Below are positions 5,663 to 28,032 of a stretch of DNA of 32,000 nt, piece after piece. A program made the translations under genes and the position numbers. Under the pieces are notes generated by a model that saw only the letters and a program-made list of their open reading frames with translations, did no database searches and was not told where the DNA came from. Numbering within the stretch: the stretch's first letter is position 1; each line of letters starts with the position of its first letter. The stretch covers positions 270,001-302,000 of the forward strand of contig CP006868.1 in the NCBI GenBank assembly GCA_025340205.1, written 5' to 3'. Source of the stretch: Ignicoccus pacificus DSM 13166 (GTDB taxonomy: Archaea; Thermoproteota; Thermoprotei_A; Sulfolobales; Ignicoccaceae).

Positions 5663-5730
5663 CCTTTGAAGAGAAGAACTCCAAAGTTTATTAAACCTTA
5701 CCTCCCATGGAGGCTCGGATGAAATAAGGT

Positions 5731-5879
5731 GGGCCCGTAGCTCAGCCAGGCAGAGCGGCGGGCTCCAGACGTATCTACGGGTCTGGACGAGCCGTAAGGC
5801 GATGATCGTCGTCTGGAGCGTTAAAGACCCGGGAGGAGAGACCCGTAGGTCGGGGGTTCAAATCCCCCCGGGCCCACCA
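5731..5879 (+). tRNA. tRNA-Trp (anticodon CCA) with a 72-nt intron at the canonical 37/38 position; the 3' CCA is encoded
   Basis: Hand-folded. Acceptor stem GGGCCCG (5731-5737) pairs with CGGGCCC (5869-5875). D arm is GCTC/GAGC. Anticodon stem GCGGG (5758-5762) pairs with CCCGT (5842-5846). The loop is CT-CCA-G..A, the T arm is GGGGG-TTCAAAT-CCCCC, the discriminator is A and CCA is at 5877-5879. Confidence 0.9.
5769..5840 (+). other. tRNA-Trp intron (bulge-helix-bulge compatible)
   Basis: CTCC (5763-5766, positions 32-35) can pair with GGAG (5835-5838). This leaves 3-nt bulges AGA at both junctions (5767-5769 and 5839-5841). Because both junctions carry an A, the boundary can shift by 1 nt. 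Confidence 0.75.
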
Positions 5880-5917
5880 CACCCGGAAGGGGTCCCCCGG
5901 GCTCCTAACCTCCTCCC

Positions 5918-6619: not shown

Positions 6620-6668
6620 GGTCTCAGCCTACCGTTCAACTTGATTTTCTGATGAAAATACTGGAAAA

Positions 6669-7769
6669 TTATATGGGAATGGGGACAAGCGTTCCAAAGC
6701 CCAATTCCCTTAGATCTCCTGCGCCCTCTCTATAGAGCTTGTGCCAGTCATCACAATTACCATAAAACAATCCCTTCCATATACCATGTCTGAACCCCCT
6801 CGGTCTGTTTTTCGCGAGACTCCAGCCTAAGCTGAAGGCATCAACTTCAACGCGATAAGGTGGAACTATAGATTTTAGGAAGTCTTCCTCTTTTGGAGTA
6901 AAGTGTTTTATTTCGTTTTTCAGTAGCTTCTCGATTTTTTCTCTTAATTGTGCAAATGAAGAGGAACGTACGTTTAGTGGTTCCTTGAAGAGTAATGGTG
7001 TGGCTATTAGTAGTAAACATTCGCCTCCATTTCTTCCATTCCAAAGGTGAGAGAGTTCTTCTTCTATCAAGTTCTTTTTAGAAAGCTCTAGTCTAGCTGG
7101 CAATCCTTCCCCGCCGAAACCTAGTATTGTTTTTTCTTCATGTCTTAAATCACCATATATATCCGCTACTATGGAACCCATTATTATTTTCTTTCCTTCT
7201 TGCACTGCGATATACCTTCTTTCTTGAATATAGATCATACCTTTGGAACTCTCAATTCCCGTTTGCTTTTTCGTTCTATGGAGAGCTATTCCGGTCAGTT
7301 CAGTTGCTCCTATTTGAGGTATTGGTCGTTTCATTACTTCAAACAAGTTCTTAGACTTTGATGGTATAAGAACCTCTCTTTTTAGTAGATCCTCAATTTT
7401 CTTTCCACTTCTTTCAAGCTCCTTTACTAGTTTACGTAGTCCCAGGATAGGAGTCCCATCAAAAGCTGTGAGCTCCTTGGCCTCACCCTCTTCAAAGATA
7501 GCGAATGCTCCGGTGAGCCTTTTCACGCCAAGCTTTTCCAAGCATTTTTTCACATCGCTTAGAATCTCGAAATTTTTATCGTCCAATTCTTTGCAAGAAG
7601 AATCTCTCTGATAGACGATTTGAGCTAGAGCTCCAGCTAAAGTCGTTGGGGGAGGAAGAGGGTAGCTTAACGAGTAGGTGACGCTTCCCCTTGTCTGAGG
7701 GCTGAAGTTTCCCGGCTTCCTAAAGCTGGAACTACCTAGTGGTCTAATTATTACTCCCATCTCGATCAC
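6669..7769 (-). CDS. cmr3: Type III-B RAMP subunit Cmr3 (Cas5-like)
   Basis: The N-terminus 'IIRPLGSSSFRKPGNF...SYPLPPPTTLAGALAQ' matches the Cmr3 pattern (l.fRd.rpF...s...P.P.T.aGA). The C-terminal glycine-rich 'GAGDLRELGFGTLVPI' is also typical. The start overlaps the cas10 stop. Confidence 0.75.
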   Translation of the reverse strand: MIEMGVIIRPLGSSSFRKPGNFSPQTRGSVTYSLSYPLPPPTTLAGALAQIVYQRDSSCKELDDKNFEILSDVKKCLEKLGVKRLTGAFAIFEEGEAKELTAFDGTPILGLRKLVKELERSGKKIEDLLKREVLIPSKSKNLFEVMKRPIPQIGATELTGIALHRTKKQTGIESSKGMIYIQERRYIAVQEGKKIIMGSIVADIYGDLRHEEKTILGFGGEGLPARLELSKKNLIEEELSHLWNGRNGGECLLLIATPLLFKEPLNVRSSSFAQLREKIEKLLKNEIKHFTPKEEDFLKSIVPPYRVEVDAFSLGWSLAKNRPRGFRHGIWKGLFYGNCDDWHKLYREGAGDLRELGFGTLVPIPI

Positions 7770-10700
7770 CTCAAAGTGTTACTCCATATCAAGAGGAAAC
7801 GGGCTAACTCTTTAGGCAGACAGACCATCTCAACCTTATCGCTGTTAGATGCATAGGCCTTACCATGTTCCTTCATCAATTTCTCCACTACTTCCTTTAA
7901 CCAGAGCTCCGTTTCACAGTTTCTCTTCCTCATGTTCTTTCGTACTACGTACTCAAAGAGTAAGGCTATGTTGGGATCGCACGTCCTACAATCAAATTCT
8001 CTTAAAGCTTCTGCAGCGTCGTAGAACGCTTGCCTCGATAGCACGTCTTTCACAAATATCAAGCCTAGACCTTTTTTCGTTATGTTTGCTAAGGGAAGTT
8101 CCAGTTTCTTTTTAGCGAACGTTGTATTGGGCAAGGTAGTAGAGTTATCTATATTTCTATAGGCGATAGCTATTCCATCTTTCCTTATGACCCATCCATC
8201 TGGAAAGACCTTCGTCGGTTTCTTGCCCTTCTCATCAGCTAGCCTTCTTGCATCCCTTAGTGCAAGTACTAGAGGCTCACGATAATGTTTCACAGCTATT
8301 CCGTACTTTCGTCCATATGCTATGAGAGCTGGTGCTAATGCTCCAAGAGGCAATTCCCTCGAATCTCCCTTCATCTTGATTTTTACCGTTATTTTCTTGA
8401 AACCGTCTTTTAGCTCGATCTTATTATCCTCTTCATTATCCTCGAAACTTGTTAATGATTCTGACTCGAAGCCCCAGTAAGCAGCTCTAGTGGTTTCCCA
8501 GATGTACAAGGGAGGACTATAAGCACCTTTTTCATTCAACTTTTTAACTGGAGCTAGAGCTAGTAGATCATCTCCCCCAGCATAGATCGTAGTACCTTCA
8601 TATTCATTTTCAATTAATGCAGTATCTATAACAGCGCCAACCATGGTAGAGTAAGAGATCTGCGCGAGATAGCTTGGAGTAACGACAATTGTCGGTATAC
8701 CTCTTCTCGCTCCTATCTCTTCCGGATTTAAGACATCTGAGAATCTAGTTACGTCCTTCATGGTATTTATAATTTCTTCTATTCTTTTTGCTTCTGAGCT
8801 GTTCTTAGATAACAAAGACTTTTTGAAGGATTCAAAGTACCTATTCTTATCATTTGGATCCTCGGTCAGCTTTCCAGTAAGTATTAAATTCATGTTGTCT
8901 CCATCGGCTCTAATGATCGCGTAGTATTTCCTTGCCTTTAATATTGCCTCCTTTATTTCTTGTAATATGTCACCTTTTACGATTATATAATTTCTGGTGA
9001 CTGGATCAAGTACTCTCACTATTTTAACGGTATCCTGTTTAAGAAACGTGTTTTCTAGAGAAACCGTTTGAATCATTTTTTCTATTAATTCATCAAGCTG
9101 ATAATCAGTCGAATTCTTCTTGCCATTAGCTTCTTCTATCTCTACTTTTATCGTATCGGTACTCTTCCCATTTCTTTTTCGCTCCCTCTTTACTAGTTCC
9201 TCGAGTTGAGTTGAGAGGGCTAAGTTCAAGAGGTCTACGCTTCTTCGCGTTTTAATTTTGAGTGCAGCATCAAGAAGAGACTCGAACAGACCAAGGTTCA
9301 AATACCATTCATATCCAAGTATTCTCTTTATAAGGCAATAGGGACAGAGAGCCTCACGCTCTCTTATAAGAACTATTCCTTTTTCTGAGTTTATCACGAA
9401 TTCTCCATTATTTCTTTTCAATACCTTTATTGGATCATCGCTTCTGTTCTTTATTATCGCCGGGAGTCCGCAGCGACACTCCACTCTAGCGACCTTTGGA
9501 TCGTTTCCGAGAAGATTCAGCCTCGATAAGTCCAACTTTACGGCGTCAAATGATTCCCTCCTGAGCTTGTTCGCCCATAACCAATGGAAGAAGAGTTTTT
9601 TCTTTAATTCATCTTTCTGATTACCTTTTTTTGATTTTTCTTCGCCTTCATTAATATTGTATTTCTCTAAGAGTTCATTAAGTTCTTTGTTATTCTCAAT
9701 ATGTTTCTTAAATATATCTTCATATTCTTTCCACGCGTCTTCAAGCTTGATCTCGACTATCGAAAGCGGTAGAGGTGGGACCTTTACGGTATTTCCGATC
9801 ATTTCCTCGATTTTCTCCTTTGTGAGCTCACAACTTACTCTATTTTCTTCACACGTATTGTAATAATCATGTAAGTTCTCTTTTACGAATTCAAATATTT
9901 TAGAGGCGAACTTTTCCCAGCAGCCCCTAAACTTTTCTCCAAAATACTCACTCCAAGAGGTTATGTCTTTCTCTAGCAATTCTTTGGCAATGTCAAGAGG
10001 AGGTAAGAGCAAAGTAGCAGTAGCGGGCATTACCGGATGTTCAGGGTTGAGAAGATAATTCGAGTGCGAACGGTGTTTAGATCTTGATTCGTTCGACTCT
10101 CTTCTTGGTGTTGATTCAGCAAGATCATCGTCATTATCGAGTAATAAACCCTTAAGGAACTTGTTATTTACCATGTGTAAATAGAAGGGGTTGAAGCGTG
10201 CCGTCGGAAGGAGCATTGTATCGGGTCCTATCTTCTCCACTACCTCCCTTATCGTGCACCACATAAGCGCAGATACTAACCAGCTGGAGGCCCAAAGATC
10301 CACTGGACCCCTCGAGTTGCTTATAAATTCTTGAACGTTTTCTATCTTTAATTTAATCATATATCCTTTCCATTTTCTGTTCCATATTACATTCACCATT
10401 TGTGCCGTAGCTGAGAGGTGATCGAATATGGTGTGATGAGGAACCCTCGTCTCTGCGACTGGAGGAACTCCAACTATTCCGTACCATAGGGGTTCAGCGA
10501 AAGCGTAAAGGACGTGGTATTTTTTCCTCAAACAATCTGTTGAATCTTCTTCATCACATTTGGTAGCACCTAGTAGCGACTTTAGCAAATTATAGAATTG
10601 ATACATTTTTTGAACTAAAGGATAAACTTCTTTATCATTTTCATGAAGAAAGTCGGGATTTGTGATATTGACCAAATGAGGGAAATTGAAAATATTTTCT

Positions 10701-11101
10701 CTTTTTCTCTTTGTAAGTAACCAACGATCAAGAGATGAGGCTATTTGATCGTAGCCCCATTTACTTTTACCACCTGTATACTTTTCTATTATCTCTATTA
10801 TCTCGTCTTCACTGAGTAATGATGCAAATAAATACTTTATTACTACAATAGCTTCTATTTCATGCATTCTTTTTCTGGAGTACTTCTTGTCATTACTCTT
10901 CTTTTTCCTTTCTTCATAGAACTTATATATCAGATTGTTTTTGTCCTCACAATTGTCTTCACAATTCTTGCTTACCCTTTTTGCCCATCTACCTTCACTT
11001 CTATTTATTATCCATGGCTTGTGAAACGGATCATGAAGATAGGCTACTATCTTTTTCTTAAAGAATTTAGTTTTATCAAGCTTGCTGCTCACTGTTATCA
11101 T
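7766..11101 (-). CDS. cas10: Cas10/Cmr2, type III large subunit (HD domain, Zn finger, two Palm/cyclase domains)
   Basis: 'AYLHDPFHKPW' (HD at 11030-11035) is the Cmr2-type N-terminal HD motif. The treble-clef cysteines 'CRCG...CPYCLIKR' are present. 'IIRADGDNMN' and 'IYAGGDDLLALAP' (GGDD at 8567-8578) are the Palm motifs. The protein is 1111 aa. Confidence 0.9.
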   Translation of the reverse strand: MITVSSKLDKTKFFKKKIVAYLHDPFHKPWIINRSEGRWAKRVSKNCEDNCEDKNNLIYKFYEERKKKSNDKKYSRKRMHEIEAIVVIKYLFASLLSEDEIIEIIEKYTGGKSKWGYDQIASSLDRWLLTKRKRENIFNFPHLVNITNPDFLHENDKEVYPLVQKMYQFYNLLKSLLGATKCDEEDSTDCLRKKYHVLYAFAEPLWYGIVGVPPVAETRVPHHTIFDHLSATAQMVNVIWNRKWKGYMIKLKIENVQEFISNSRGPVDLWASSWLVSALMWCTIREVVEKIGPDTMLLPTARFNPFYLHMVNNKFLKGLLLDNDDDLAESTPRRESNESRSKHRSHSNYLLNPEHPVMPATATLLLPPLDIAKELLEKDITSWSEYFGEKFRGCWEKFASKIFEFVKENLHDYYNTCEENRVSCELTKEKIEEMIGNTVKVPPLPLSIVEIKLEDAWKEYEDIFKKHIENNKELNELLEKYNINEGEEKSKKGNQKDELKKKLFFHWLWANKLRRESFDAVKLDLSRLNLLGNDPKVARVECRCGLPAIIKNRSDDPIKVLKRNNGEFVINSEKGIVLIREREALCPYCLIKRILGYEWYLNLGLFESLLDAALKIKTRRSVDLLNLALSTQLEELVKRERKRNGKSTDTIKVEIEEANGKKNSTDYQLDELIEKMIQTVSLENTFLKQDTVKIVRVLDPVTRNYIIVKGDILQEIKEAILKARKYYAIIRADGDNMNLILTGKLTEDPNDKNRYFESFKKSLLSKNSSEAKRIEEIINTMKDVTRFSDVLNPEEIGARRGIPTIVVTPSYLAQISYSTMVGAVIDTALIENEYEGTTIYAGGDDLLALAPVKKLNEKGAYSPPLYIWETTRAAYWGFESESLTSFEDNEEDNKIELKDGFKKITVKIKMKGDSRELPLGALAPALIAYGRKYGIAVKHYREPLVLALRDARRLADEKGKKPTKVFPDGWVIRKDGIAIAYRNIDNSTTLPNTTFAKKKLELPLANITKKGLGLIFVKDVLSRQAFYDAAEALREFDCRTCDPNIALLFEYVVRKNMRKRNCETELWLKEVVEKLMKEHGKAYASNSDKVEMVCLPKELARFLLIWSNTLR

Positions 11102-11666
11102 CCTCCTTTATGTAAGCTTCAACTAATTTCTTGAGTTCGATAGAGTATTCAATTACCATTTTTTCTAATATAGATCTTGAAGTTCCATCCCACATTAATA
11201 TTTCCTCTAACAAATCTAATAATCCACAAAAGTTAGAGGTAGTTCGAAATTCTCCCCTTCCTAACTTTCTTCCTATGTGTTCTATTGCTGAGACATAACA
11301 CGCTAACGCTATGCTGTAGCTGACCTTCTCGGTCTTTGATTCAAGATCATTTAGAGTAATGCTTTCCGCAACTGAAAGAGCATTATCTGGGTTTCTAAAA
11401 TCATTAATGATACTCTCGAAGGTCTTTGGATCCGATTTCGACATGTAAAATGTTAGGGTTCGGAGGAGCCCATCAGAGCTAGCCATAGATGGGAATGACC
11501 TCACTCTACTCCTAACTCCCTTCTTCATTGCTATCTTTGTTTCTTCCTTAATTTTCCCGTCCACTTTTTGTAAATCATCAAAGGTATTCTTTATGATTCC
11601 TGCATGCCTCACGGCAAGTAATATTAAATCGAGGTCGGAGGGTTCCGATGTCAAAGTCCTTTTCAC
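11076..11666 (-). CDS. cmr5: Type III small subunit Cmr5 (Cas11)
   Basis: 196-aa all-helical protein between cmr4 and cas10. 'VRSRVRSFPSMASSDGLLRTLTFYMSK' fits the Cmr5 pattern (lr..v..lP.mI..nGL..tlaFl.sK). The helical C-terminus 'IEYSIELKKLVEAY' also fits. Confidence 0.6.
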   Translation of the reverse strand: MKRTLTSEPSDLDLILLAVRHAGIIKNTFDDLQKVDGKIKEETKIAMKKGVRSRVRSFPSMASSDGLLRTLTFYMSKSDPKTFESIINDFRNPDNALSVAESITLNDLESKTEKVSYSIALACYVSAIEHIGRKLGRGEFRTTSNFCGLLDLLEEILMWDGTSRSILEKMVIEYSIELKKLVEAYIKEDDNSEQQA

Positions 11667-12712
11667 CTCAGCAGGAACTTAAGCATTCCCTTCCCTAGCG
11701 TCTCCTTTCCTCCTAATGCTAGATCGAACTCCACTGGGCCTCTTGTCTTGTTGTCTTTTGAGAGTAGGCGCTTGAGTACCTCTATCGGTTCTTCCTTCAC
11801 TAATGTCATTAGCTCCTCTTCCTCTGACACTTTTTTGTTATTGTTATCAGAAGAACTCTCACAATATTCGTTTTCAAATCCTCTTGTACCTATTAGGCCA
11901 GTGAATACCGTACCATGAGGTAGGTATTCTTCTTTCCAAACTCCTCCTCGTTGAACCGTCTTTTTCCTATAGTTTAATCTAATCCTTGTAACCCTAAACA
12001 AGGCCTTCTCTATAATATTTACTATGTCTGCATCCTCAAAGAGGTAAACTTTAGTGTGTTGGAGGAAAGGTATTAGATTAGAAATGTCCTCTTTTTTACT
12101 GCCAAGAACCCTAGCCATCCTCTCTTCGATTTCATCGTCTAATTCAACTGCTTCGAACTTCTCTAATTCTACAAATACTTTTTTCTTTTCCTTGTTTTTG
12201 ATGGAGTTTGGATCTATATTCAAATCTATACCATTAAGCTTAGCTCTAGAGAGAAGATAGGGACTAGTTGCATAAGCGAAAACATCATTTAAACTCGGAA
12301 AAGGAATGAATAGGGGATAGAGATCGCCTAGTATGAGCTTTGATGCACCCTTCTCCGTATCTTCGGGTTCATGGCCTAATAGACAGCAGATGAGGTTACA
12401 CGTATTAACATTCTCTTTTTTGTTTGATTGATTTTCACTTTTCTTAACTTCACACTTAACCCTTCCACCACTATCCAAACATCTAAACTTTCTTGCCAGT
12501 GATGACTTCAATGAACCTTTAAACGAAGACGCTGGAATAAAAGGTATTCCGAAGGGATCCCTTATTATTGGGAGATCTACGACTCCCCTGCTTCCTTCGG
12601 CTCCAACGTGAACGTGAGTCAACGCTATCGCAAGCAAGGGTGAGGTTTCCTTCAAGGAGTTTGACCCATCTATCCATTTGGACGGTAAGTTATAAAGAGT
12701 TCTTTGATTCAC
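11663..12712 (-). CDS. cmr4: Type III-B backbone RAMP Cmr4 (Cas7); the true start may lie about 25 codons downstream
   Basis: 'ALTHVHVGAEGSRGVVDLPIIRDPFGIPFIPASSFKGSLKS' includes the catalytic-Asp context and the P.IPgSSlKG motif. 'CNLICCLLGHE' and the C-terminal 'LGGKETLGKGMLKF' G-rich loop are also present. The annotated GTG start is only 14 nt from the divergent gene. Confidence 0.8.
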   Translation of the reverse strand: MNQRTLYNLPSKWIDGSNSLKETSPLLAIALTHVHVGAEGSRGVVDLPIIRDPFGIPFIPASSFKGSLKSSLARKFRCLDSGGRVKCEVKKSENQSNKKENVNTCNLICCLLGHEPEDTEKGASKLILGDLYPLFIPFPSLNDVFAYATSPYLLSRAKLNGIDLNIDPNSIKNKEKKKVFVELEKFEAVELDDEIEERMARVLGSKKEDISNLIPFLQHTKVYLFEDADIVNIIEKALFRVTRIRLNYRKKTVQRGGVWKEEYLPHGTVFTGLIGTRGFENEYCESSSDNNNKKVSEEEELMTLVKEEPIEVLKRLLSKDNKTRGPVEFDLALGGKETLGKGMLKFLLR

Positions 12713-12726
12713 TTACTTGATAGAAG

Positions 12727-13299
12727 TTGAGCGTTCTCCAGAGCCCTTTAGCGGTCGCTTACCTTCATGGCAAGATATTGTGTAAGATCATAGAAGATAA
12801 TACAGATGAGAACTTTCAGAAGGCCCTTAGATCAATACTCCGCTCCCTTCCTTCGGAGCTTAGCGATTCTGGCTACATTGGTGTTCTATCCATGAAGCTT
12901 TACAAGACATGGGAACAATCAAGCGTTCTCGCAGATCTATACCTTGATCTCTTGCCAAGTGTTGACTTGGAAAGGAATAAGAAAGAAGATATCGAAAAGA
13001 GTATTGAGAATGTAAAAACAAAGATAATAAACCTTATACAAAATACGGCAGATAAAAGAACTCTCGCCGAGAGCCTCGTTACATCAATGCTAATCGTGGC
13101 CTTAGCTACGCTTAATCCATCTTGCAAGAAGTGTCTTGATATACAGCTCAGCGTCGCTCTAAGGAAGCTTTTGAGCGGGAAGTGCTGTAAAATACCGGAG
13201 AGAGCAATTCTTCTGTACTCGGAGGAGATGAAGAAGTTTGTAGACGGAATAGTCCAAGTGGAGGAGGGAAAGGACAATGAGTCTCGAGATCGACTTTAA
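12727..13299 (+). CDS. Helical protein, candidate second Cas11/Cmr5-like small subunit
   Basis: 190 aa with a TTG start. 'ALRSILRSLPSELSDSGYIGVLSM' parallels 'VRSRVRSFPSMASSDGLLRTLTF' of the neighbouring Cmr5. The C-terminus 'ILLYSEEMKKFVDGIV' parallels 'VIEYSIELKKLVEAYI'. Confidence 0.4.
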   Translation: MSVLQSPLAVAYLHGKILCKIIEDNTDENFQKALRSILRSLPSELSDSGYIGVLSMKLYKTWEQSSVLADLYLDLLPSVDLERNKKEDIEKSIENVKTKIINLIQNTADKRTLAESLVTSMLIVALATLNPSCKKCLDIQLSVALRKLLSGKCCKIPERAILLYSEEMKKFVDGIVQVEEGKDNESRDRL

Positions 13300-14830
13300 T
13301 GAGTATCTCAGAAATGATCAATTAGAAGATCCCCCTCTGGAATTCTTAGGCACCTTCGTAAATATAACTCCCTACATGGGCGGTAGCTTTGACAACGGCA
13401 AAACGTTCAGAGGCAACCGCTTCATAGGTCATCCTACAGCGCAAGCAATAAAGGCGAGAGCTCGTTACGCCTCCTTACTCGCGCTAACTTCTTTCATTAC
13501 TAGTCCTCAAAGTTACAAGGATGCATTCAAAATAAAAGTAATTATCGAAGGAGATAAAGAAGAAATTCCCTTACTCTGTTTGATCTATGGTTGTGTAGAC
13601 TCTCATCAATTCGGTTCCCCCTTTCACTTGATAGTTAAGAACGTAAGGGGAGCCAAGAAGTGGCGCAACGCCGGAAACAGGAAAGCGAAAGATAGGTACA
13701 ATGCTATTCTAAGAAGAAACGATAAGAGAATGGAGTTAGCTCCTGCAGAAACCGGTACTGTAAGTTTTGAGTTACACGTCTCCGTTGATGAGGATAGATT
13801 GGTCTTATTAGAACTCACTCCTAGAGAGATCGAGATACTTAAGGAAATATTCGAATCAAGCGTTCTCGTAGCGCTATCTCTCTTCGGTATAGGAAAGGCA
13901 GCTAGCCGAGGATTCGGACGCTTCTGGAAAAAAGACGAAGAGCTAACTTTTGAGAAACTGATAGAAAACGTGGAAAAGTTGTTGGAACATTGGAAAGAGC
14001 TATTAAGCAAATTAAAGAAGTCAGATAAGCTAAAAATATATAAAGATGAGATCGAACTAAAGGATGATTACTCAAAGGATATTATTATTGGAAAGGTTCC
14101 CCACTTGGGATTCATTCCAAGGATAAAGACCGAGTTTTCAAACGAACTCTTCATGAGATCTAGAGCTCCAATTGATACTAAGATAGAGATGATTGCTAGG
14201 GCAGTGTTGAAGTCCAATTGGAGAAGAAGGAGTTCCGGAGGCGGAGCTCGCTTCCACACGTGGCCTCTAGGTCTCCCAAGGTCCTCAAAGATCAAATGTA
14301 CATGCTATGGATATGATGGGAATTATCAAAGATACGGATACTTCGTAACAAGCATGATCAGTCCCACGAGAGAAATCGCTTGTGAACACTCTAGACCTTG
14401 CGGAGGCTCAAACATCCCAACAACGGAAGATAGGCACCAATCCATGGTTTACTTCATTCCATTGAAGGAAGGAATAGTAATAGTTCCTTTCTTCACTGAT
14501 GCAATGAAAGATGAGCTGATATTTACGAGAACTGCTCGGAAACTTTACCATGTTGGAGGAATCTTCGTTGAAGGTAAGCCTTGCTGTAATAGAAGGTTCA
14601 TAAGCGTTTCGAGGGTGCTTCTTGGAAGAGACCCAATCAAGTTCCCAGAGGCTCGCGAAGGATGTGATTGTGGAAGCGAAAGACTGGGAATAGCAAGGCC
14701 GCCGAGAAGGTCCCCGAGGTTAATGAATGAGGTTACAAAAGGCAGTCGAGGTAGAGATGATCGATTATATAGGGAAGCGTTGGCAGCATCACTGGAATGG
14801 ACAATCTTCGTACTAAAAAGAAGATTCTAA
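13277..14830 (+). CDS. cmr1: Cmr1-like RAMP (Cas7-family) with a compositionally distinct Cys/Arg/Gly-rich C-terminal extension
   Basis: 'FVNITPYMGGSFDNGKTFRGNR...PTAQAIKARARYASL' fits the Cmr1 pattern (TPlf.gG...R.psiKG.lRfw.Ra). The G-rich loop is 'LFGIGKAASRGFGRFW'. From about aa 310 the composition changes (RRRSSGGGARFHTWPLGLPRSS, several CxC/CC pairs). Confidence 0.55.
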   Translation: MSLEIDFNEYLRNDQLEDPPLEFLGTFVNITPYMGGSFDNGKTFRGNRFIGHPTAQAIKARARYASLLALTSFITSPQSYKDAFKIKVIIEGDKEEIPLLCLIYGCVDSHQFGSPFHLIVKNVRGAKKWRNAGNRKAKDRYNAILRRNDKRMELAPAETGTVSFELHVSVDEDRLVLLELTPREIEILKEIFESSVLVALSLFGIGKAASRGFGRFWKKDEELTFEKLIENVEKLLEHWKELLSKLKKSDKLKIYKDEIELKDDYSKDIIIGKVPHLGFIPRIKTEFSNELFMRSRAPIDTKIEMIARAVLKSNWRRRSSGGGARFHTWPLGLPRSSKIKCTCYGYDGNYQRYGYFVTSMISPTREIACEHSRPCGGSNIPTTEDRHQSMVYFIPLKEGIVIVPFFTDAMKDELIFTRTARKLYHVGGIFVEGKPCCNRRFISVSRVLLGRDPIKFPEAREGCDCGSERLGIARPPRRSPRLMNEVTKGSRGRDDRLYREALAASLEWTIFVLKRRF

Positions 14831-14894: not shown

Positions 14895-15911
14895 ATGGCA
14901 TATGCCATCCCCTTTAATATAAATGAAATACCTCAAAGGTACGAAATATTTGAAAAATTAAACTTATTCTATAATGAGAGTGCTACTTTTCTCTCAAGGG
15001 TGTTGAATAGAAATGAAAACGATCTTCTAACGTTGTTCCATGAGAATGGTAGCTTCCTCTTCGAAACTTATCTAAGAAAGATAATGTTCATTGAATACAA
15101 AGGAAATATAATGACCTTTGAGGGCCCTCCTGGAAGCGGAAAGTCCACAGCACTCTTGTCACTCACAATGGGAGGATCGGACTTTTACCTTGATGGTAAT
15201 CGAAACGAAATTAACGAAATTTTTAGACAAAGACCCATATTTCCTTTGGCTATTGTTGATGTTCAAGTAGTTCCAGAAGAAGATAGCTTATTCTCTTGGA
15301 TCGAGGGATATATGAATAATTATTTATCGATATTATTTGACCATTTTGAGAGAAGTTCATGTCCTACAGAAGCTATGGAAAGGGTAGAAATTACAAAAAA
15401 GACGTTTAATGAAGTGGCAAGATCACTAGGATTCTTAATGCTCGATAAGGATCAATTAGCACAAACGATGGCAACCGATCTCAGCGAATATATTGACAAC
15501 TTAAAGAAGATATCAAAAAGTGGGATGGAATTTAGAGAAAATTACTTAAAATTTGCTAGAGAGCTGCGATTACTACTTAAAGAACTACGGGCTACAGAAC
15601 ATTATCCCTTACTCCTCTTCGCTTTCGATAATGTAGAAAGCAATCTTAAGACGTTTAGAGAAATTATGACACTCTGTAAGCTAATCTCAGTAGATCCCTT
15701 GAGCTTGTGTATCTTAGCCATACGTGATTACAGACCTCTTTTGCCAGCACTCCTTAGTTGGGATGCATGGGAAAATTTACAATACCTAAACGATATCACT
15801 GCGGAACGTGATGAGATAGCGTATGAGCTATTATATAGAATTACAATACTCGATGCAATAAACACCATTGAGAAGCTCTTTCTACCTCAATATATTATAA
15901 AGTTTAGGTAA
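14895..15911 (+). CDS. P-loop NTPase of unassigned family, embedded in the cmr operon
   Basis: Walker A is 'FEGPPGSGKSTALLSL' (15123-15149). The Walker-B candidate is 'YPLLLFAFDNVE'. It has the same strand and AT-rich composition as the cas genes. Confidence 0.6.
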   Translation: MAYAIPFNINEIPQRYEIFEKLNLFYNESATFLSRVLNRNENDLLTLFHENGSFLFETYLRKIMFIEYKGNIMTFEGPPGSGKSTALLSLTMGGSDFYLDGNRNEINEIFRQRPIFPLAIVDVQVVPEEDSLFSWIEGYMNNYLSILFDHFERSSCPTEAMERVEITKKTFNEVARSLGFLMLDKDQLAQTMATDLSEYIDNLKKISKSGMEFRENYLKFARELRLLLKELRATEHYPLLLFAFDNVESNLKTFREIMTLCKLISVDPLSLCILAIRDYRPLLPALLSWDAWENLQYLNDITAERDEIAYELLYRITILDAINTIEKLFLPQYIIKFR

Positions 15912-15953: not shown

Positions 15954-17375
15954 ATGAGATTAACTACTCCGAATGAAATACTTCAACAAGATGAATATGG
16001 TGTACTCTACGTTAAAGAAGTATGGGAAGATTTACAAGAAATATTTAATAGAGATAGAAGGGGCAGAAGGAGAATATATCCCATAGATAGAATTACAAAT
16101 CTCTTAGAGAGGAATGTGCCAGAGTTTAGGGAAAGGTACGAAAACTTGTTTTACGAAACGTTCGAAGGCCTCGGGCTCAATGAAACTTTAAGTAGAGAGC
16201 TCTATGAATTGTTGTTCTCTCAAGAAAATCATGATCAAAGAAGTTCCCTAACAGGCGTTATTAAGATTTTCCTTGAATTAGTGTTTCGTGCTCCGTTTTC
16301 AGAAATCTTTATCTCCCTTCGTTGCAAGGAGAAACTCTCGATTATCTATGATACTTTCCAAGATATGGAGGAGAACCGAGAGGAGTATATTAAATCGTCG
16401 ATAATTCACCTTGCTAGACAGTGTTTCCCTTACTCGTTCTTTGCAAACGATACGATTTACGTTTTCCACCAAAGTGATTTAAATGAGTTATACAATATGT
16501 ACTTTAACGATACTGTTCGAAGAAATACTGATGCAATTAATTTAGACACTTTGTTCAGCTTTAGTACCGTTAGTACCGATGGTGAGGGAGAAGAACAAGC
16601 AGAAGTCTACACGGAAATTAGGAGGTTGTTAGTATCTCCTTATCAATTGGTTGTACTGTTGGAAGAGTATATAAGAAACGAGCCTTATTCTAGGGTAATA
16701 CATGAAATTCTTAATTACACTAGTAGACCTAGGTTCGGAGGAGGAATAGGAAAATACTCTATAATCGAACACGTAATCTCAGAGCCCGGAAGAAATCTAT
16801 ATATCGAGCCATTCCTACATCCCCATCCCAAAAGAGCTGTAGAAGTTCTCTTTTATCACGCAGTGTTCTATTCATGGCTAGAGAAACTACTTCAAGCATG
16901 GTTTGAGATAATTAGGTTTAATGTTACTAACACAAATGAATCAAGAATGATAAATAACTTTATCCTTATCATATCACTAATTTACATTTATCTGTTATTG
17001 ATTCATGTTAAAAGAAGAATAGGGAACAGAGATGTTATCGTACCTACCGTTAAAGACCACCTCATAGTCCTCTTTACCCTGATTACTTTATTACACAGAG
17101 CTCCATACAATGAAATAAGAGATATCTTGCTTGAAAACAATATATTAGCTATTGTTGGAGGTGAAAGAGAAAATATCCTTGGAGATCAATTTGGAGGAAC
17201 TACATATAGAAGATACATCCTCTTCCTCTTGAACATAATATACAATGACACAGTAAGGATTGTTGATATTCGCGATCAGTTAACCGATCCAGAAGTTCTC
17301 CTCACTATAGGCTACGTTAGACGTAAACTCCTCGATATTCAGAGGTTCTACAACCCACCAAGAGAGGAGGGATGA
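15954..17375 (+). CDS. Uncharacterised 473-aa protein with one or two hydrophobic segments, embedded in the cmr operon
   Basis: A long ORF with GGAGGTG 6 nt upstream of the ATG. Its stop overlaps the start of the deaminase gene (ATGA). Hydrophobic stretches are 'MINNFILIISLIYIYLLLIHV' and 'LIVLFTLITLL'. I recognise no catalytic motif. Confidence 0.5.
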   Translation: MRLTTPNEILQQDEYGVLYVKEVWEDLQEIFNRDRRGRRRIYPIDRITNLLERNVPEFRERYENLFYETFEGLGLNETLSRELYELLFSQENHDQRSSLTGVIKIFLELVFRAPFSEIFISLRCKEKLSIIYDTFQDMEENREEYIKSSIIHLARQCFPYSFFANDTIYVFHQSDLNELYNMYFNDTVRRNTDAINLDTLFSFSTVSTDGEGEEQAEVYTEIRRLLVSPYQLVVLLEEYIRNEPYSRVIHEILNYTSRPRFGGGIGKYSIIEHVISEPGRNLYIEPFLHPHPKRAVEVLFYHAVFYSWLEKLLQAWFEIIRFNVTNTNESRMINNFILIISLIYIYLLLIHVKRRIGNRDVIVPTVKDHLIVLFTLITLLHRAPYNEIRDILLENNILAIVGGERENILGDQFGGTTYRRYILFLLNIIYNDTVRIVDIRDQLTDPEVLLTIGYVRRKLLDIQRFYNPPREEG

Positions 17376-19615
17376 GGATGAATGGTGTCTTGAGACTGCC
17401 ACATTTCTACAACAATTTGAGAGACTCCTTGAAAGCAATTCTCATAGTCCCTATTAATCTCACTAAACATGAACATTCTGAGGAAATTATTAATGAGATA
17501 AATAAATGTTATCAAGGTCTAATAAGAGGGAGGGGACGACGGTTAGAGACTTGCAGAAAAGTAGTTCAACTAAGTGGCATGAAGAACGTCGTCGGAGAGA
17601 CGAAACTCAAGAAGTTCTTAGCCGATCGAATGTTAAATGATCCCCCTCCGTTCTCTCCCCTATACCCTCTTAGGATTGATTTGATCAACTCCATTCTAGA
17701 TTATATAAATACAGAAGTAAAGAAAGCAGTTGGAAGAGAACTTTACAATCTTAATCTATATGATGCTGATTATTCAACCTTGTTTAAGGCACTTACTGAT
17801 GGAATAATCCGGAATATCCGCGGTGTTATAAACGTCAATGATGTTACCGAGCTTATCATACTCAGTAGGAGAATCCCCATAGAACACCTAAGTTGGCAAC
17901 TTTCTCCAGGATTTCTACGAGAAGTGACAGATGAACATGTTCATTTAGGAGCATCCTTAACTCCTCTGTCAGCTTTCTTCCACGTGAGTTACTTCATCTA
18001 TTCCCTTCCTCGCAACATCGTGAAGAAGACTAGTAAATACTCGAGCTTTTTGAGTGAGAACTTCTTCAAACTTCTGGAAGTGCTCCCGATAGCGCGCATA
18101 GCTCTTGAAGCTTGTTTAGAAAGAAATGTACCTTCTATCTTTAGTGATAATGAAGAAGTTAATAAGAAAGCGATTAGAGAATACTTAGAGACGCTCTTGA
18201 GCAAAAACGTAGTAGAAGAAGAAAGACTATTGGTACGTGATGTTCTTTTGAGAAATAAATGTTCGATTGAATTTCTAATATACGAATTGATATCATCATC
18301 CCTAGTCTCCTCAATAGTTCAGAACGACCTCTATACCGGTCTGAGCAGCTTCAGCATGTTCTACAGTCGTGGCAGCACAGCAATAAAAGCGATCAGGAAA
18401 GCAGTTAAGAACAGTATCGCGAAAAACGCCAAGAGACGTTACGTTAAGATAATAGAACACTTCCACGGGACGATGGATGAGGTTATCGGAACTAGATTAA
18501 CCGTCCGCTTTAAGATATCTGCAGAGGATTTTTACAAGAACTTTAAGATAATAAATAACTTCAAGAGGTTAAGTTCCCAGAAATACTTTCTAAGTTATGT
18601 AAAAAGACCTTTTAAAAATGAACGGAAGAGAGCACTGCGTTCTCTTCTTGACGACATGTATAAGGAAGCGTACTACTTCAAGCTAGTTCTTGAAAATTAT
18701 GAGAACGCTAAGAAGATAGTATTAGGTCCTGATGTAGCCGGAGTTGAGGAACACGTGCCTAACTGGATTGGGGTTAGGTACGTGAGCATGACTACCGAAT
18801 TTATGACCGAGAAAGGGGTTCCCTCTATCATAAGCTATCATGCTGGGGAAAGTTACTTCAACGTCTTCAACGGCCTTCGTTCAATGTATGAGGTAATAGA
18901 ATTTGGAGGGTTAAGGAGCGATGATAGAATAGGTCACGCCTTAGTTCTCGGAGACACAGAAGTCATGAACAGTTACATAGAAAATGCTTGGGATGCCCTC
19001 TTCGATCTCGTTTTCATTCGCTTGTTTCTAGAAAGGGAAATGCCACACCTAGTGAATCAGCTAGAAGGTACCTTTAGACAAGTGATCTATAAAGTCAGAA
19101 GAGAAGGGATGGAAATACAGCCAGAACTACTAATGGAACTTTGGAAGGATCTGTTTGATGAGGAAAGGTTAAGGTATCTCCTCTTCCATTCCAGCTATCC
19201 TGCACTTTCCAACGGTTACTACTATAGTGTGGTAAATAATTTCAAGATGAGAGAGGTTGAAGAAGAGATATTGGAAGTATTCAAGCACTATTTCAATAGC
19301 TGGCATAAGACTCAATCAGTTGATCTTATTAAAGTTCTGCAGAGATCGTTCTCAGAAGATCAAATAAGGGAGATAGCTACAAACATCAGAGAGTTTCTGA
19401 TGGAGTTAGTGAAAAGAAAAGGTATATTCATCGAAAGTTGCCCTACATCAAACATCATAATAAGGCACTTGAGTTCACATCCGCTTGGTCTATTTAAAGA
19501 AAAAGAATTGAAGGTGGGAATGGGAACAGACGACCCGTTGATTCTAAATACAGAGCCTTTTATAGAGCAAGGCATATTTAACAAACTTCTTGAAGAAGTA
19601 GACATGACAAGGTGA
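17372..19615 (+). CDS. Adenosine/AMP-deaminase-fold metallohydrolase with an N-terminal ~185-aa domain of unknown type; candidate CRISPR-linked nucleotide deaminase (Cad1/RdrB-like)
   Basis: The full deaminase signature is present in the canonical order: 'EHVHLGAS' (H189/H191, nt 17936-17944), 'SYHAGESY' (H490/E493, nt 18839-), 'DRIGHALVL' (H522), 'ESCPTSNI' (690-694) and 'GMGTDDPL' (D720/D721, nt 19529-19534). Confidence 0.8.
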   Translation: MRMNGVLRLPHFYNNLRDSLKAILIVPINLTKHEHSEEIINEINKCYQGLIRGRGRRLETCRKVVQLSGMKNVVGETKLKKFLADRMLNDPPPFSPLYPLRIDLINSILDYINTEVKKAVGRELYNLNLYDADYSTLFKALTDGIIRNIRGVINVNDVTELIILSRRIPIEHLSWQLSPGFLREVTDEHVHLGASLTPLSAFFHVSYFIYSLPRNIVKKTSKYSSFLSENFFKLLEVLPIARIALEACLERNVPSIFSDNEEVNKKAIREYLETLLSKNVVEEERLLVRDVLLRNKCSIEFLIYELISSSLVSSIVQNDLYTGLSSFSMFYSRGSTAIKAIRKAVKNSIAKNAKRRYVKIIEHFHGTMDEVIGTRLTVRFKISAEDFYKNFKIINNFKRLSSQKYFLSYVKRPFKNERKRALRSLLDDMYKEAYYFKLVLENYENAKKIVLGPDVAGVEEHVPNWIGVRYVSMTTEFMTEKGVPSIISYHAGESYFNVFNGLRSMYEVIEFGGLRSDDRIGHALVLGDTEVMNSYIENAWDALFDLVFIRLFLEREMPHLVNQLEGTFRQVIYKVRREGMEIQPELLMELWKDLFDEERLRYLLFHSSYPALSNGYYYSVVNNFKMREVEEEILEVFKHYFNSWHKTQSVDLIKVLQRSFSEDQIREIATNIREFLMELVKRKGIFIESCPTSNIIIRHLSSHPLGLFKEKELKVGMGTDDPLILNTEPFIEQGIFNKLLEEVDMTR

Positions 19616-20493
19616 GAGTCGAAATGAACGGTAAACGGCCGGATCTCATAGCGTTCGAGGAATTTGTGAAGACCATCGTTGACGCTTATGAGAACCCTGA
19701 GGGAGCTGCTTCGATGATAAAGAACCTCAAACGAAGTATAATATTGAAGCTGGAGAGTGAGACCCTAGACTACGTACCTAAGATATTCGAGCTCATAAGG
19801 AGGCTAAACGAGATGAAGAAAGAAGCGTTGAAAAGAAACGGATATTGGGTAGGATATGTTCAAGCGAAATTAGTCTCTCCAGGTCTTGTAGGCTCTAGTG
19901 AGGGCATCTTCAAAACTGTGTTCGAAGTTGGACTAACCCTTGACAAAGTGTTGGGCGTCCCCTTCTACCCCTCTTCGTCGGTAAAGGGGGTGGTCAGATC
20001 TAGGATTAAAAATATGCTAGAAAAAGAAGATAAAAATGTAGAGGAAGTCGTACAAGAGCTTTTCGGAGATATGGAAAGCGAAGGAAACGTGATTTTCATG
20101 GATGCTTACCCGATTGGCTGTATAGAGGAGCAATGTTCCTTATTCTCAGGAGCGGTGATTACTCCTCACTACTATAAAGGAGGCCAAGTAGTAGATAATG
20201 AACTTGGAGTTAAACCCGTTCCTATTCCACACCTTGTTGTCTCTCCAGGTTTGGTATTTGAGTTTATAATAGGAGTTAGGCGTGATGGAGGATATACGAA
20301 CACTATAAAGATGCTAGGAAATGGAAGCATAAGAGCTCATGAAATACCTCAAAAAGTTCTAATTAAGATCATGAGTTTATTAGTCGAAGAATTACAGAAG
20401 GGAGCCTTCGGTAGGGCTAGTAAGGGTTTCAACGTATTTGAGCCCGATAAAGGGTTAATCCCCAGTCAAGTGAGGGCATTAGGGATTCTATAG
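19612..20493 (+). CDS. cmr6: Type III-B RAMP subunit Cmr6 (Cas7-family)
   Basis: 'KLVSPGLVGSSEG...GLTLDKVLGVPFYPSSSVKGVVRS', 'VITPHYYKGG' and the G-rich 'GAFGRASKGFNVFE' match the Cmr6 pattern. The GTG start overlaps the deaminase stop (GTGA); an alternative ATG is at 19624. Confidence 0.75.
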   Translation: MRVEMNGKRPDLIAFEEFVKTIVDAYENPEGAASMIKNLKRSIILKLESETLDYVPKIFELIRRLNEMKKEALKRNGYWVGYVQAKLVSPGLVGSSEGIFKTVFEVGLTLDKVLGVPFYPSSSVKGVVRSRIKNMLEKEDKNVEEVVQELFGDMESEGNVIFMDAYPIGCIEEQCSLFSGAVITPHYYKGGQVVDNELGVKPVPIPHLVVSPGLVFEFIIGVRRDGGYTNTIKMLGNGSIRAHEIPQKVLIKIMSLLVEELQKGAFGRASKGFNVFEPDKGLIPSQVRALGIL

Positions 20494-20795: not shown

Positions 20796-21562
20796 CTTTC
20801 TATTCACTCTTGTAACTCTTCATGGTATAAGACATGTTGCTACGCTTCCCGGCATTCCTGATGCCTTTCTATTCACTATTGTAACTCTTCAAGGGCCCTA
20901 GAGCTCCTGAGCAGCCCCAAGCTGATCCTCTCGCTTTCTATTCACTATTGTAACTCTTCCTACCGACTTCATCAAGGATCAAGTGAGCTCAAAGATCCAG
21001 GACTTTCTATTCACTATTGTGACTCTTCAGGTGAGAAGATGAAAATCGTCGAGACCAAGAAGCTCCCTTATCCTTTCTATTCACTATTATAACTCTTCAT
21101 CTTTATCATTGTATATTATAGATAGTGTGAGCAGTAAGACTTTCTATTCACTATTGTAACTCTTCGATGGTTCGACTACGACCTCGGACACGATAGATCT
21201 GGGCTTTCTATTCACTATTGTAACTCTTCCTCAAGCTGGCTGAGTACTACGCGGAGCTGGCAAAGAAGACGCTTTCTATTCACTATTGTAACTCTTCCTC
21301 AATCGACCTAGAGAATTTGACCATGGCCGTAGAGCCGAAGACTTTCTATTCACTATTGTAACTCTTCAAAGCATTGAAAAGCTGAAGACCGAGTGCCGGG
21401 ACAAGGTTGACTTTCTATTCACTATTGTAACTCTTCGACTTCATTGTGGCGTTGGTAGGAGAGCCGGGCTGCCTTTCTATTCACTATTGTAACTCTTCGC
21501 CCTAGATCATCCCCTCGAGGCTGGGACTGGATCATACTTTCTATTCACTATTGTAACTCTTC
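20796..21562 (-). CRISPR. CRISPR array with 12 repeats of 26 nt and 11 spacers of 36-44 nt; probably transcribed from the minus strand
   Basis: The plus-strand repeat is CTTTCTATTCACTATTGTAACTCTTC, starting at 20796, 20865, 20934, 21003, 21073, 21140, 21204, 21272, 21342, 21411, 21473 and 21537. Variant repeats are R1 (A>C, CACTCTTG), R4 (GTGACTC) and R5 (ATTATAAC). The reverse complement GAAGAGTTACAATAGTGAATAGAAAG ends in ATAGAAAG, like the ATTGAAAG 8-nt crRNA tag of archaeal repeats. Confidence 0.95.
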
Positions 21563-27564: not shown

Positions 27565-28032
27565 GTGGCCCTCTCCAAACCAATTCCCAAAGACATAACC
27601 GAAGAGCTCTTCAGATACCGCTTAGAGCAAGCTGAGGAAGAGGTTAAGCTTGCTAAGAGGCTCTTGAAGGAAGGTTTCATTAGGAACGCCGCTGGTAAGG
27701 CCTTCCAAGCCTGGAAGGAACTGCTCGGAGCTTACATCGTCAAGCACTATGAGGACCTCAAGGGCTTCTACAGCGAGGAAAAGTTGAAGAAGTTAGCTTT
27801 ACTCGTTCCGACCACGAAGATGAAGGAAATAAGCAACAAGTTGGCTCAAGTTGGGGAAAGGGAACTAACTGCTTGGACCGATAAGGCCCTCTCCCTCCAT
27901 AGGTTCCAATATAACGGCCCAGATCCAGACTTGGCCCTAAGCGATTACAGGAGCGAGGAGGAAGCTAGAGAGGATATTGAGATATTGATTGGGGAGATAG
28001 AGAGGAGAGTGAGAGAACTTAGGAAAGGTTGA
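27565..28032 (+). CDS. PaREP1-family-like (HEPN-like helical) protein
   Basis: 'EEVKLAKRLLKEGFIRNAAGKAFQAWKELLGAYIV' resembles the conserved core of archaeal PaREP1 proteins as I recall it. The start is GTG. Confidence 0.4.
   Translation: MALSKPIPKDITEELFRYRLEQAEEEVKLAKRLLKEGFIRNAAGKAFQAWKELLGAYIVKHYEDLKGFYSEEKLKKLALLVPTTKMKEISNKLAQVGERELTAWTDKALSLHRFQYNGPDPDLALSDYRSEEEAREDIEILIGEIERRVRELRKG

Follow-up and report, generated by a model that had tools for sequence, protein, structure and literature searches.

The window analysed here is a stretch of 32,000 nucleotides (nt) from Ignicoccus pacificus DSM 13166 (GCA_025340205.1, contig CP006868.1, positions 270,001 to 302,000 of the forward strand), and coordinates are counted from its first letter. 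It carries a complete type III-B (Cmr) CRISPR locus with cmr1-6 and cas10, as identified by Pfam, PADLOC and NCBIfam. Between cmr1 and cmr6 lies a gene pair for an ATPase and a deaminase, which are relatives of RdrA and RdrB, the two proteins of the RADAR defence system. The deaminase gene is IPA_01645 of this hyperthermophilic crenarchaeon, annotated as coding for a hypothetical protein; its product is 100% identical to that of the open reading frame (ORF) at 17372-19615 on the plus strand (747 aa, ATG start). The plus-strand order is a weak cmr5-like ORF, cmr1, the N-terminal ATPase piece, the C-terminal ATPase piece, the deaminase gene, cmr6 and then a CRISPR array. The pair and the two cmr genes that flank it are as follows.

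13277-14830, plus strand: cmr1, 517 aa (PADLOC Cmr1, 5.3e-12; 47-50% identity to Cmr1 of the related metagenomic loci L001 and L002)
14895-15911, plus strand: RdrA-like AAA+ ATPase domain, 338 aa, predicted N-terminal piece of a split gene (hhalign, BLAST)
15954-17375, plus strand: 473-aa protein at the position of the RdrA C-terminal helical lobe, putative C-terminal piece of the split gene (position and size)
17372-19615, plus strand: IPA_01645, predicted RdrB-like adenosine (probably ATP/dATP) deaminase, 747 aa (NCBIfam, PADLOC, Foldseek, hhalign)
19612-20493, plus strand: cmr6, 293 aa (PADLOC Cmr6, 2e-33; NCBIfam TIGR01898, 1.6e-25)

The deaminase coding sequence overlaps the neighbouring gene by 4 nt at each end, on the 17375 side and at the cmr6 start. 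A GGAGG box abuts the ATG at 17372 and stands 7 nt ahead of an in-frame ATG at 17378 (M3). The latter is better spaced from the box and may be the true start, in which case the 4-nt overlap with the upstream gene would disappear. No jump in GC content separates the module from the cmr genes, and a recent horizontal insertion of the module was rejected on this ground. The initial annotation of the deaminase ORF missed both the RdrA-like partner and the cmr operon setting, which lie outside the interval it covered.

Catalytic site of the deaminase

The initial annotation had read the catalytic motifs of the adenosine deaminase (ADA) fold from this ORF, in canonical order and with an intact active site. 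All the motifs are found at the residues it gave, namely HVH at 189-191, HAGE at 490-493, RIGH at 519-522, CPTSN at 690-694 and TDDP at 719-722. They fall into three segments.

17936-17944, plus strand: HVH (H189/H191), first metal-ligand pair, in the same column as RdrB H152/H154
18839-18937, plus strand: HAGE (H490/E493) and RIGH (H522), with a metal ligand, the catalytic Glu and the final catalytic His, in the RdrB columns H498/E501/H530
19439-19537, plus strand: ESCPTSN (688-694) and GTDDP (718-722, D720/D721), Pfam A_deaminase match at 675-727

In 126 relatives, H490, G492, E493, H522, E688, S693 and N694 are invariant, and H189, H191 and D720 are conserved in at least 90%. R166 and D187 are invariant among 10 relatives. 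The only Pfam match is A_deaminase at aa 675-727, in the C-terminal strand-loop region, with an E value of 4.7e-8 and over the gathering score. Because Pfam and NCBIfam both match the protein and the motifs are conserved over 126 relatives, a chance origin of the motifs was dismissed.

The distance from H189 to H490 is 301 aa and that from H522 to D720 is 198 aa, which agrees with the spacings of about 300 and 200 aa noticed earlier. The mouse ADA numbering (H15/H17, H214, H238 and D295) agrees with classical spacings of about 200 and 57 aa. In six canonical RdrB sequences, the corresponding columns H152, H498, H530 and D748 are separated by 346 and 218 aa. Convergence of the His, Glu and Asp residues on a metal site is predicted from alignment to the solved RdrB and ADA structures.

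Relationship of the deaminase to RdrB

Several comparisons place the deaminase near RdrB. The NCBIfam RdrB model NF041744 matches it with an E value of 6.8e-17 and 61.3 bits, which misses the curated equivalog cut-off of 800 bits, and the PADLOC RdrB model matches at 5e-16. A sequence search of the PDB found 8fnv, 8fnw and 8hr7 at 3.8e-5. For the profile comparison, six canonical RADAR loci from plasmids (one annotated rdrA/rdrB) were collected with a 120-aa fragment of E. coli RdrB. In hhalign, ten archaeal relatives matched the six RdrB sequences with a probability of 100% and an E value of 1.9e-43 over 630 columns, with all the catalytic columns matching. The RdrB invariant residues H152/H154, H498/E501, H530 and D748/D749 correspond to H189/H191, H490/E493, H522 and D720/D721 in I. 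pacificus. The alignment runs from residue 125 of the deaminase (residue 64 of RdrB) to the C terminus, and aa 1-124 are left unaligned.

An AlphaFold2 (AF2) model was built from a 90-sequence alignment, with a mean predicted local distance difference test (pLDDT) of 80.4 and a predicted TM-score of 0.84; an alignment of 3 sequences gave a pLDDT of 44. Residues 131-747 of the model are mostly confident, and residues 1-130 are helical with a pLDDT below 50. The top Foldseek match in the PDB is E. coli RdrB (8fnv and 8hr7; E 2.5e-15, TM 0.52-0.56, 820-900 columns), at an identity of merely 13-15%. Classical ADAs appear from an E value of 4.7e-5 (TMq 0.29) and cover the core only, with TMq of 0.23-0.31. 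Cad1 matches at 1e-2, through the catalytic core. By these comparisons the ORF encodes an archaeal, highly diverged RdrB homologue with a complete metal and catalytic site, a distant homologue rather than an equivalog.

RdrB consists of an ADA core with an N-terminal extension (insertion 1), an insertion 2 that divides the core, and an insertion 3 past H530, and in E. coli RdrB the three insertions form the dodecameric shell (PMC9994260). Counterparts of all three are found in the I. pacificus protein.

17372-17923, plus strand: N-terminal extension, aa 1-184, equivalent to RdrB insertion 1 (AF2 blocks, hhalign)
17963-18496, plus strand: helices inserted into the barrel and splitting it, about aa 198-375; counterpart of RdrB insertion 2 (AF2, hhalign)
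18986-19420, plus strand: helices inserted past the final catalytic His, about aa 539-683; counterpart of RdrB insertion 3 (AF2, hhalign)

In the model, helices 198-375 stand between strands 185-191 and 376-383, and helices 539-683 between strands 519-522 and 686-689. Within the extension, aa 131-184 are conserved and confident in the model, and hhalign aligns residues 125-188 with residues 64-151 of the RdrB N-terminal extension. Residues 1-124 are poorly conserved in the closest homologues, and about 55 of them are missing from one homologue, P0004. By alignment and model, the extension and the two insertions are the three defining additions of RdrB.

These results bear on what had been proposed from the sequence at first. 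Two large insertions and an N-terminal extension are indeed present, and RdrB as comparator, with ATPase docking or oligomerisation as possible roles, was an apt choice. A beta-strand at 'AILIVPINLT' gains no support, as it falls in the helical segment of low pLDDT. The sensor-sized N-domain that had been left unassigned matches no sensor family, and its residues 125-188 align with the RdrB extension. The initial proposal was to fall if the N-domain proved to be an ordinary part of a known housekeeping deaminase family, and a variant of this is the case: the N-domain is an ordinary part of a known family, RdrB, whose role is in defence rather than housekeeping.

The layout of the protein is not peculiar to it. 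A HMMER scan of 1.84 billion cluster representatives, with a profile of three close homologues, gave 3379 matches at E <= 1e-3, most of them 700-950 aa long. Among the full-length proteins within the best 40 of the 3379, HxH stands 30-259 residues from the N terminus, mostly beyond 100; H-x-G-E follows about 270-410 residues past HxH, and x-D-D-P about 230-270 residues further. Most full-length relatives, the free-standing ones included, have 107-259 aa ahead of HxH, and a few have much less. Because the top full-length matches share this layout, the wide spacings and the N-terminal extension are typical of the superfamily. Word-index homologue searches with the single sequence and with the 3-sequence profile returned three proteins each, and a profile search of genome contigs with ten sequences gave one distant Acidilobaceae fragment and did not recover I. 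pacificus itself.

Two other identities were rejected. With the NCBIfam ADA equivalogs the protein reaches 15-35 bits, where the cut-offs are 216-549, and a classical housekeeping adenosine or AMP deaminase was ruled out by these scores, by the Foldseek TMq of 0.23-0.31 and by the defence-related context. Identity with Cad1, or another CARF-ADA protein, was rejected in view of the lack of a CARF match and of the Foldseek E value of 1e-2 through the core. Pfam, PADLOC and NCBIfam gave no CARF or SAVED signal in the deaminase, Pfam found no match to residues 1-190 at E <= 10, and the sole match of the PADLOC CARF_ADA model lies in the core, at residues 436-531.

The enzyme might still be gated in the manner of Cad1 by cyclic oligoadenylate (cOA), with its N-terminal 185 aa or its insertions serving as a new second-messenger sensor. 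The gene belongs to a type III locus whose Cas10 carries GGDD, a cOA-gated ATP deaminase has a precedent in Cad1 (PMC11645235), and residues 1-124, unaligned and modelled with low confidence, leave room for a small novel ligand site. We consider this improbable. CARF and SAVED signals are absent from the Pfam, PADLOC and NCBIfam results, and the structural match to Cad1 is weak and limited to the core. The first 124 or so residues are the poorly conserved ones that P0004 lacks in part, free-standing relatives unconnected with CRISPR have extensions just as large, and residues 125-188 and both insertions align with assembly interfaces of RdrB.

The split RdrA-like ATPase

RdrA is composed of an N-terminal AAA+ domain and a C-terminal helical lobe without known homologues, and the lobe is its proposed sensor (PMC9994260). 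The 338-aa piece carries a Walker A motif, GPPGSGKS, at 77-84 and a Walker B-like motif, FDNVE, at 244-248. It is 30-32% identical to the first 340 aa or so of the unsplit ATPases in L001 and L002 (844 and 876 aa). In hhalign, six archaeal ATPases matched six RdrA sequences with a probability of 98.3% and an E value of 1.3e-14 over 247 columns, and the match covers Walker A, a long helical insert, Walker B and beyond. By BLAST the ATPase is 22% identical to Aureibacter RdrA over 272 aa. Sequence-profile searches of the PDB with the ATPase gave generic P-loop, RFC, Lon and 'mad8' matches only.

The two pieces at 14895-15911 and 15954-17375 share one reading frame, with two TAA codons between them and a GGAGGTG box ahead of the second ATG. 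Their lengths sum to 811 aa (338 + 473), compared with 838-892 aa in unsplit relatives. RdrA is a single polypeptide, and so are the ATPases of L001, L002 and the joined contigs L022 and L003 (844-892 aa); that of the window is not. An equivalent split into 357 and 403 aa (5665-6738 and 6755-7966) occurs in the free-standing cassette L010/L011, from assemblies GCA_027078975.1 and GCA_035615675.1. The break in I. pacificus coincides with the junction of AAA+ domain and lobe. Because the second piece has its own ribosome-binding box and the same split recurs in two other assemblies, the split form is probably functional. The 473-aa protein is a putative RdrA C-terminal lobe, assigned by position and size, and the sole feature it has in common with other C lobes is an 'RC.EK(L/I)' motif. 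The two genes upstream of the deaminase gene are best described as a split RdrA-like AAA+ ATPase, the predicted partner of the deaminase.

A split gene could also mark a module in decay. Two in-frame stops interrupt the ATPase gene, the 473-aa piece has no detectable homologues, and the sister species Ignicoccus islandicus contains a clear remnant of the module. That the module is a decaying or inactive relic, with the split as a step on the way to loss, is nevertheless the least probable of the readings considered here. Both pieces are long intact ORFs, the second with its own GGAGGTG box and ATG; the break respects the boundary between AAA+ domain and lobe and recurs in an unrelated free-standing cassette in two assemblies; and the deaminase keeps all its catalytic residues and the ATPase its Walker A Lys. 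A pseudogene was judged unlikely on the same intact ORFs, box and recurrent split.

Conservation of the gene order

The close family of the deaminase comprises only four intact proteins (E <= 1e-145) among the 1.84 billion representatives, and the next match is at 4.5e-52. With one remnant added, the family is small. The order cmr1, ATPase, deaminase, cmr6 is found in 4 of 4 intact members, namely the window, L001, L002 and the joined L022 and L003. In the last case L003 has cmr6 downstream of the deaminase gene, and the L022 contig has a cmr5-like gene, cmr1 and the start of the ATPase gene. The end of L022 (3377-3456; ERZ27262679 k141_581844) is a Nextera adapter, CTGTCTCTTATACACATCT..., which interrupted the assembly within the ATPase gene. 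Removal of the adapter joins L022 to k141_625484 (L003) through a 9-nt overlap just before the adapter sequence, and yields an uninterrupted ATPase ORF of 892 aa.

Pairwise identities among the loci are 32-44% for the deaminase, 38-53% for Cmr6 and 47-50% for Cmr1. The deaminase and Cmr6 agree in making L002 and L003 the closest pair, in line with co-inheritance of the module and the cmr genes. The loci have GC contents of 44-55%, so their hosts are distinct lineages. An RdrB-type deaminase with an RdrA-type partner is stably embedded in cmr operons. The pair has been captured in the cmr operon and is co-inherited with Cmr. No CARF effector was found in the window or in the flanks of L001 and L002. 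The flanks of three intact loci contain no ancillary effector other than the module, and at least one of these loci has a cyclase-competent Cas10. Downstream of the operon in L001 (10167-13675) there are genes for a 443-aa protein and a 726-aa HerA/FtsK-like ATPase; Shah et al. 2018 (PMC6546367) name HerA/NurA pairs among the genes that co-evolve with type III systems.

In I. islandicus DSM 13165, a decayed module lies between cmr1 and cmr4 (L021, 11609-12911). The ATPase remnant is a 209-aa ORF that keeps Walker A and aligns to residues 17-277, with similarity extending to nt 12346. The deaminase remnant (P0017) is an open ORF of 152 aa, which aligns to residues 587-739 and contains CPTSN and TDDP without HxH or HAGE. 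The remnants are followed by cmr4, cmr5, cmr6, cas10 and cmr3, and a gene for Csx1 (CARF-HEPN; 8322-9911) stands immediately upstream of cmr1. P0014, a protein of 131 aa from elsewhere, is a C-terminal-only deaminase fragment like P0017.

More distant relatives (E 1e-31 to 1e-52) keep the upstream ATPase gene and have no cmr neighbours, and a large P-loop ATPase is encoded immediately upstream of the deaminase in every relative with enough flanking sequence. The contigs that carry P0031 and P0008 are so short that neighbouring genes are not covered. Just 3' of the free-standing split cassette there is a thymidylate-kinase-family gene (PF02223; L010, 10350-11300 and L011, 10365-11300). This pairing of a nucleotide kinase with a nucleotide deaminase is reminiscent of Kongming, for which kinase-dependent dITP signalling has been reported.

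These distributions can be read in two ways. The module may have been recruited as a built-in effector of the Cmr complex, or it may be a RADAR-like system that acts autonomously and has only a promoter and a defence-island address in common with Cmr, with no exchange of signals. Beyond the clade, the closest relatives form self-sufficient cassettes of two genes without nearby cmr genes, no known cOA sensor (CARF, SAVED or other) was found in the module, no domain is specific to the embedded clade, the N-terminal extensions being equally long in free-standing relatives, and in I. islandicus the module has decayed while the cmr genes stay. All four points suit autonomy, which we regard as a serious but rather unlikely alternative. 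The same slot in the middle of the operon is kept in four lineages at 32-44% protein identity, with overlapping coding sequences. Such retention exceeds what one would expect of a passenger, as defence islands usually shuffle whole systems instead of interleaving them. Three loci with an intact module also have no other ancillary effector in their flanks, at least one of them with a cyclase-competent Cas10.

The type III-B locus of the window

The remaining features of the locus are listed below.

6669-7769, minus strand: cmr3 (Pfam, PADLOC, NCBIfam)
7766-11101, minus strand: cas10/cmr2, with GGDD at aa 842 and HD at aa 23
11076-11666, minus strand: cmr5
11663-12712, minus strand: cmr4
12727-13299, plus strand: possible second cmr5-like gene, 190 aa as listed, start uncertain (PADLOC Cmr5, 1.2e-4)
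20796-21562, strand unassigned: CRISPR array, 12 repeats of 26 nt and 11 spacers of 36-44 nt

A gene for Cmr5 or a protein of its size is also found immediately 5' of cmr1 in L002 and L022. The listed start of the cmr5-like ORF is 14 nt from the divergent cmr4 ORF, which ends at 12712, and the listed starts are TTG and GTG. Because the two are merely 14 nt apart, both are probably placed too far upstream. The locus has a Cas10 with the GGDD cyclase motif, as is the case for cOA-dependent ancillary effectors. This Cas10 is unusually long (1111 aa); the Cmr2_N match begins only at aa 249, the extra N-terminal 250 aa or so contain the HD motif, and there are Lys/Glu-rich low-complexity stretches, for example at aa 480-500 and 640-665.

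The CRISPR repeat is CTTTCTATTCACTATTGTAACTCTTC, and its minus-strand end is ATAGAAAG. The usual archaeal 8-nt handle of CRISPR RNA is ATTGAAAG. Because the repeat end ATAGAAAG is close to ATTGAAAG, the array is probably transcribed from the minus strand, towards cmr6. Neither cas6 nor adaptation genes were found within the 32-kb window, and no CARF effector or ring nuclease is encoded in it. Elsewhere in the window, a gene for a McrB-like AAA_5 ATPase (464 aa, 28977-30371, minus strand) overlaps a 338-aa ORF without a Pfam match (28019-29035). The pair at 28019-30371 may be of the McrBC restriction type, and a PaREP1 gene adjoins it (27565-28032).

Proposed function of the module

In RADAR, RdrB converts ATP and dATP to inosine triphosphate (ITP) and dITP with RdrA docked, and growth is arrested (PMC9994260). 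We consider it probable that the I. pacificus pair is a RADAR-type ATP/dATP deaminase module recruited as a built-in ancillary effector of its Cmr complex. For this module we infer the substrate, the oligomeric state and a physical or signalling link to Cmr. If the module works as RADAR does, its deaminase would be oligomeric, a ring of the ATPase would dock on it, and the docked ATPase would switch on conversion of ATP/dATP to ITP/dITP. The products would poison or starve the replication of the invader, and the cell would arrest its growth. From the genomic context, the trigger would be the Cmr complex upon recognition of target RNA. Because the module has no CARF or SAVED sensor, the signal is proposed to pass either by direct contact with Cmr or through a Cas10 product that the RdrA-like ATPase senses. 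One possible contact is docking near the Cmr1/Cmr6 end of the complex, encoded by the genes on either side of the module. The stronger form of this proposal, that the Cmr complex is the infection sensor of a RADAR machine and programs ATP/dATP to ITP/dITP conversion by sequence without CARF or SAVED, is put forward more tentatively, with a chance that we place a little below even.

Several observations weigh against recruitment by Cmr. A second-messenger sensor domain (CARF, SAVED and the like) was found in none of the deaminase, the ATPase piece and the 473-aa protein. Gene order establishes co-inheritance and makes co-transcription probable; signalling from Cmr would be a step beyond it. Because related free-standing pairs work without cmr genes, such a module can sense infection alone, and this one may still do so. 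The PADLOC RdrA models do not match the ATPase, and the RdrB score is 61 bits against a cut-off of 800, so substrate and assembly could differ from those of RADAR. The 473-aa protein gave nothing significant by BLAST to the unsplit ATPases or by Pfam at E <= 10, and in hhalign against an alignment of eight C lobes it reached an E value of 0.42, with no detectable similarity. Neither cas10 nor cmr3 was found within the flanks of L002. The I. islandicus remnant shows that the module is dispensable, and the complementarity between Csx1 and loss of the module is seen at a single locus. CARF effectors could also be encoded elsewhere in the I. pacificus genome, beyond the 32-kb window.

A different role for the chemistry has been considered as well, in which the enzyme deaminates cOA or S-adenosylmethionine-AMP (SAM-AMP) to end signalling, or makes ITP/dITP as a messenger for another effector as in Kongming. 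The RADAR deaminase can reportedly use several metabolites that contain adenosine (PMC12669630), a dITP signal made by a deaminase is known in bacteria (bioRxiv 10.1101/2024.12.20.629578), and the window has no ring nuclease. This role is speculative and very improbable: no sequence feature suggests cOA binding, the locus contains no candidate for a downstream effector that would sense ITP, and the obligatory AAA+ partner and the RdrB-type architecture favour the RADAR mode.

Implications

The new element is an ATPase-deaminase pair wired into a cmr operon; the deaminase itself is a distant RdrB. No mention of RADAR genes in a cmr operon was found in the RADAR structure paper, the Cad1 papers, surveys of type III accessory genes or the matches of a full-text search, which cover the literature incompletely. 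To our knowledge, nearly every known type III ancillary effector is a single protein that contains a CARF or SAVED sensor. If recruitment by Cmr holds, a sensor-less ATPase-deaminase machine of two or three proteins would fill the slot of a type III effector, and a complete two-protein defence system, autonomous in other settings, would for the first time have been taken over by CRISPR as an effector. An ITP output shared with Cad1 would mean that type III systems recruited ATP deamination twice independently.

The feature of infection that activates RADAR has been stated as not known, and the RdrA C-terminal lobe is suspected (PMC9994260). Control by Cmr would provide a programmable RADAR trigger, which could be supplied as target RNA. 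In the split ATPase, the AAA+ ring and the putative sensor lobe are separate proteins, a natural dissection that could be useful in experiments. The survey also exposes an archaeal branch of RADAR, with free-standing and split-ATPase forms, that standard models do not call.

Comparison with known systems

Classical ADA, AMP deaminase and ADAL share the TIM-barrel amidohydrolase fold of the I. pacificus deaminase, with identical metal and catalytic residues, but they are without the three insertions, an ATPase partner or a defence context. The barrel of classical ADA is compact, at about 330-370 aa. The free-standing archaeal cassettes (deaminases P0006, P0007, P0009, P0010 and P0011; L004, L005, L007, L008 and L010) contain the same two protein families, with deaminase E values of 1e-31 to 1e-52 to the clade profile and ATPase BLAST values of 1e-10 to 1e-15. 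They differ in having no adjacent cmr genes, and one of them has the same ATPase split. These cassettes are apparently RADAR-like systems of archaea that have escaped annotation.

A precedent for an effector within an effector operon is the TPR-CHAT protease Csx29 with gRAMP/Cas7-11, where the effector is attached directly to the complex, is gated by target RNA and has no cyclic-nucleotide sensor. The enzyme class differs from that of the deaminase module. The physical association of Csx29 with gRAMP has been demonstrated, whereas that of the module with Cmr is hypothesised only.

Cad1 (PMC11645235, PMC12669630; PDB 9c67, 9mmw) is likewise an ADA-fold protein encoded in type III loci, and its output as an ancillary effector, ATP to ITP, is the output proposed for the I. 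pacificus module. Cad1 assembles into hexamers, works without an ATPase and binds cA4/cA6 through a CARF domain at its N terminus. In contrast, the I. pacificus protein has no CARF domain and has an AAA+ partner. It also carries the RdrB insertions, and Cad1 matches its core only.

RADAR (RdrA and RdrB; PDB 8fnv, 8hr7; Duncan-Lowey et al. 2023, PMC9994260) has the same gene order, with the ATPase gene followed by the deaminase gene. The deaminases have identical catalytic columns and the same three insertions, and the ATPases share the RdrA AAA+ domain with a long helical insert between Walker A and B. In both systems the AAA+ domain precedes a fast-evolving helical C-terminal part. RADAR is a free-standing operon, which none of the four intact members of the clade is. 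Unlike RADAR, the I. pacificus module belongs to an archaeal hyperthermophile, has its ATPase encoded by two genes and is embedded between cmr1 and cmr6.

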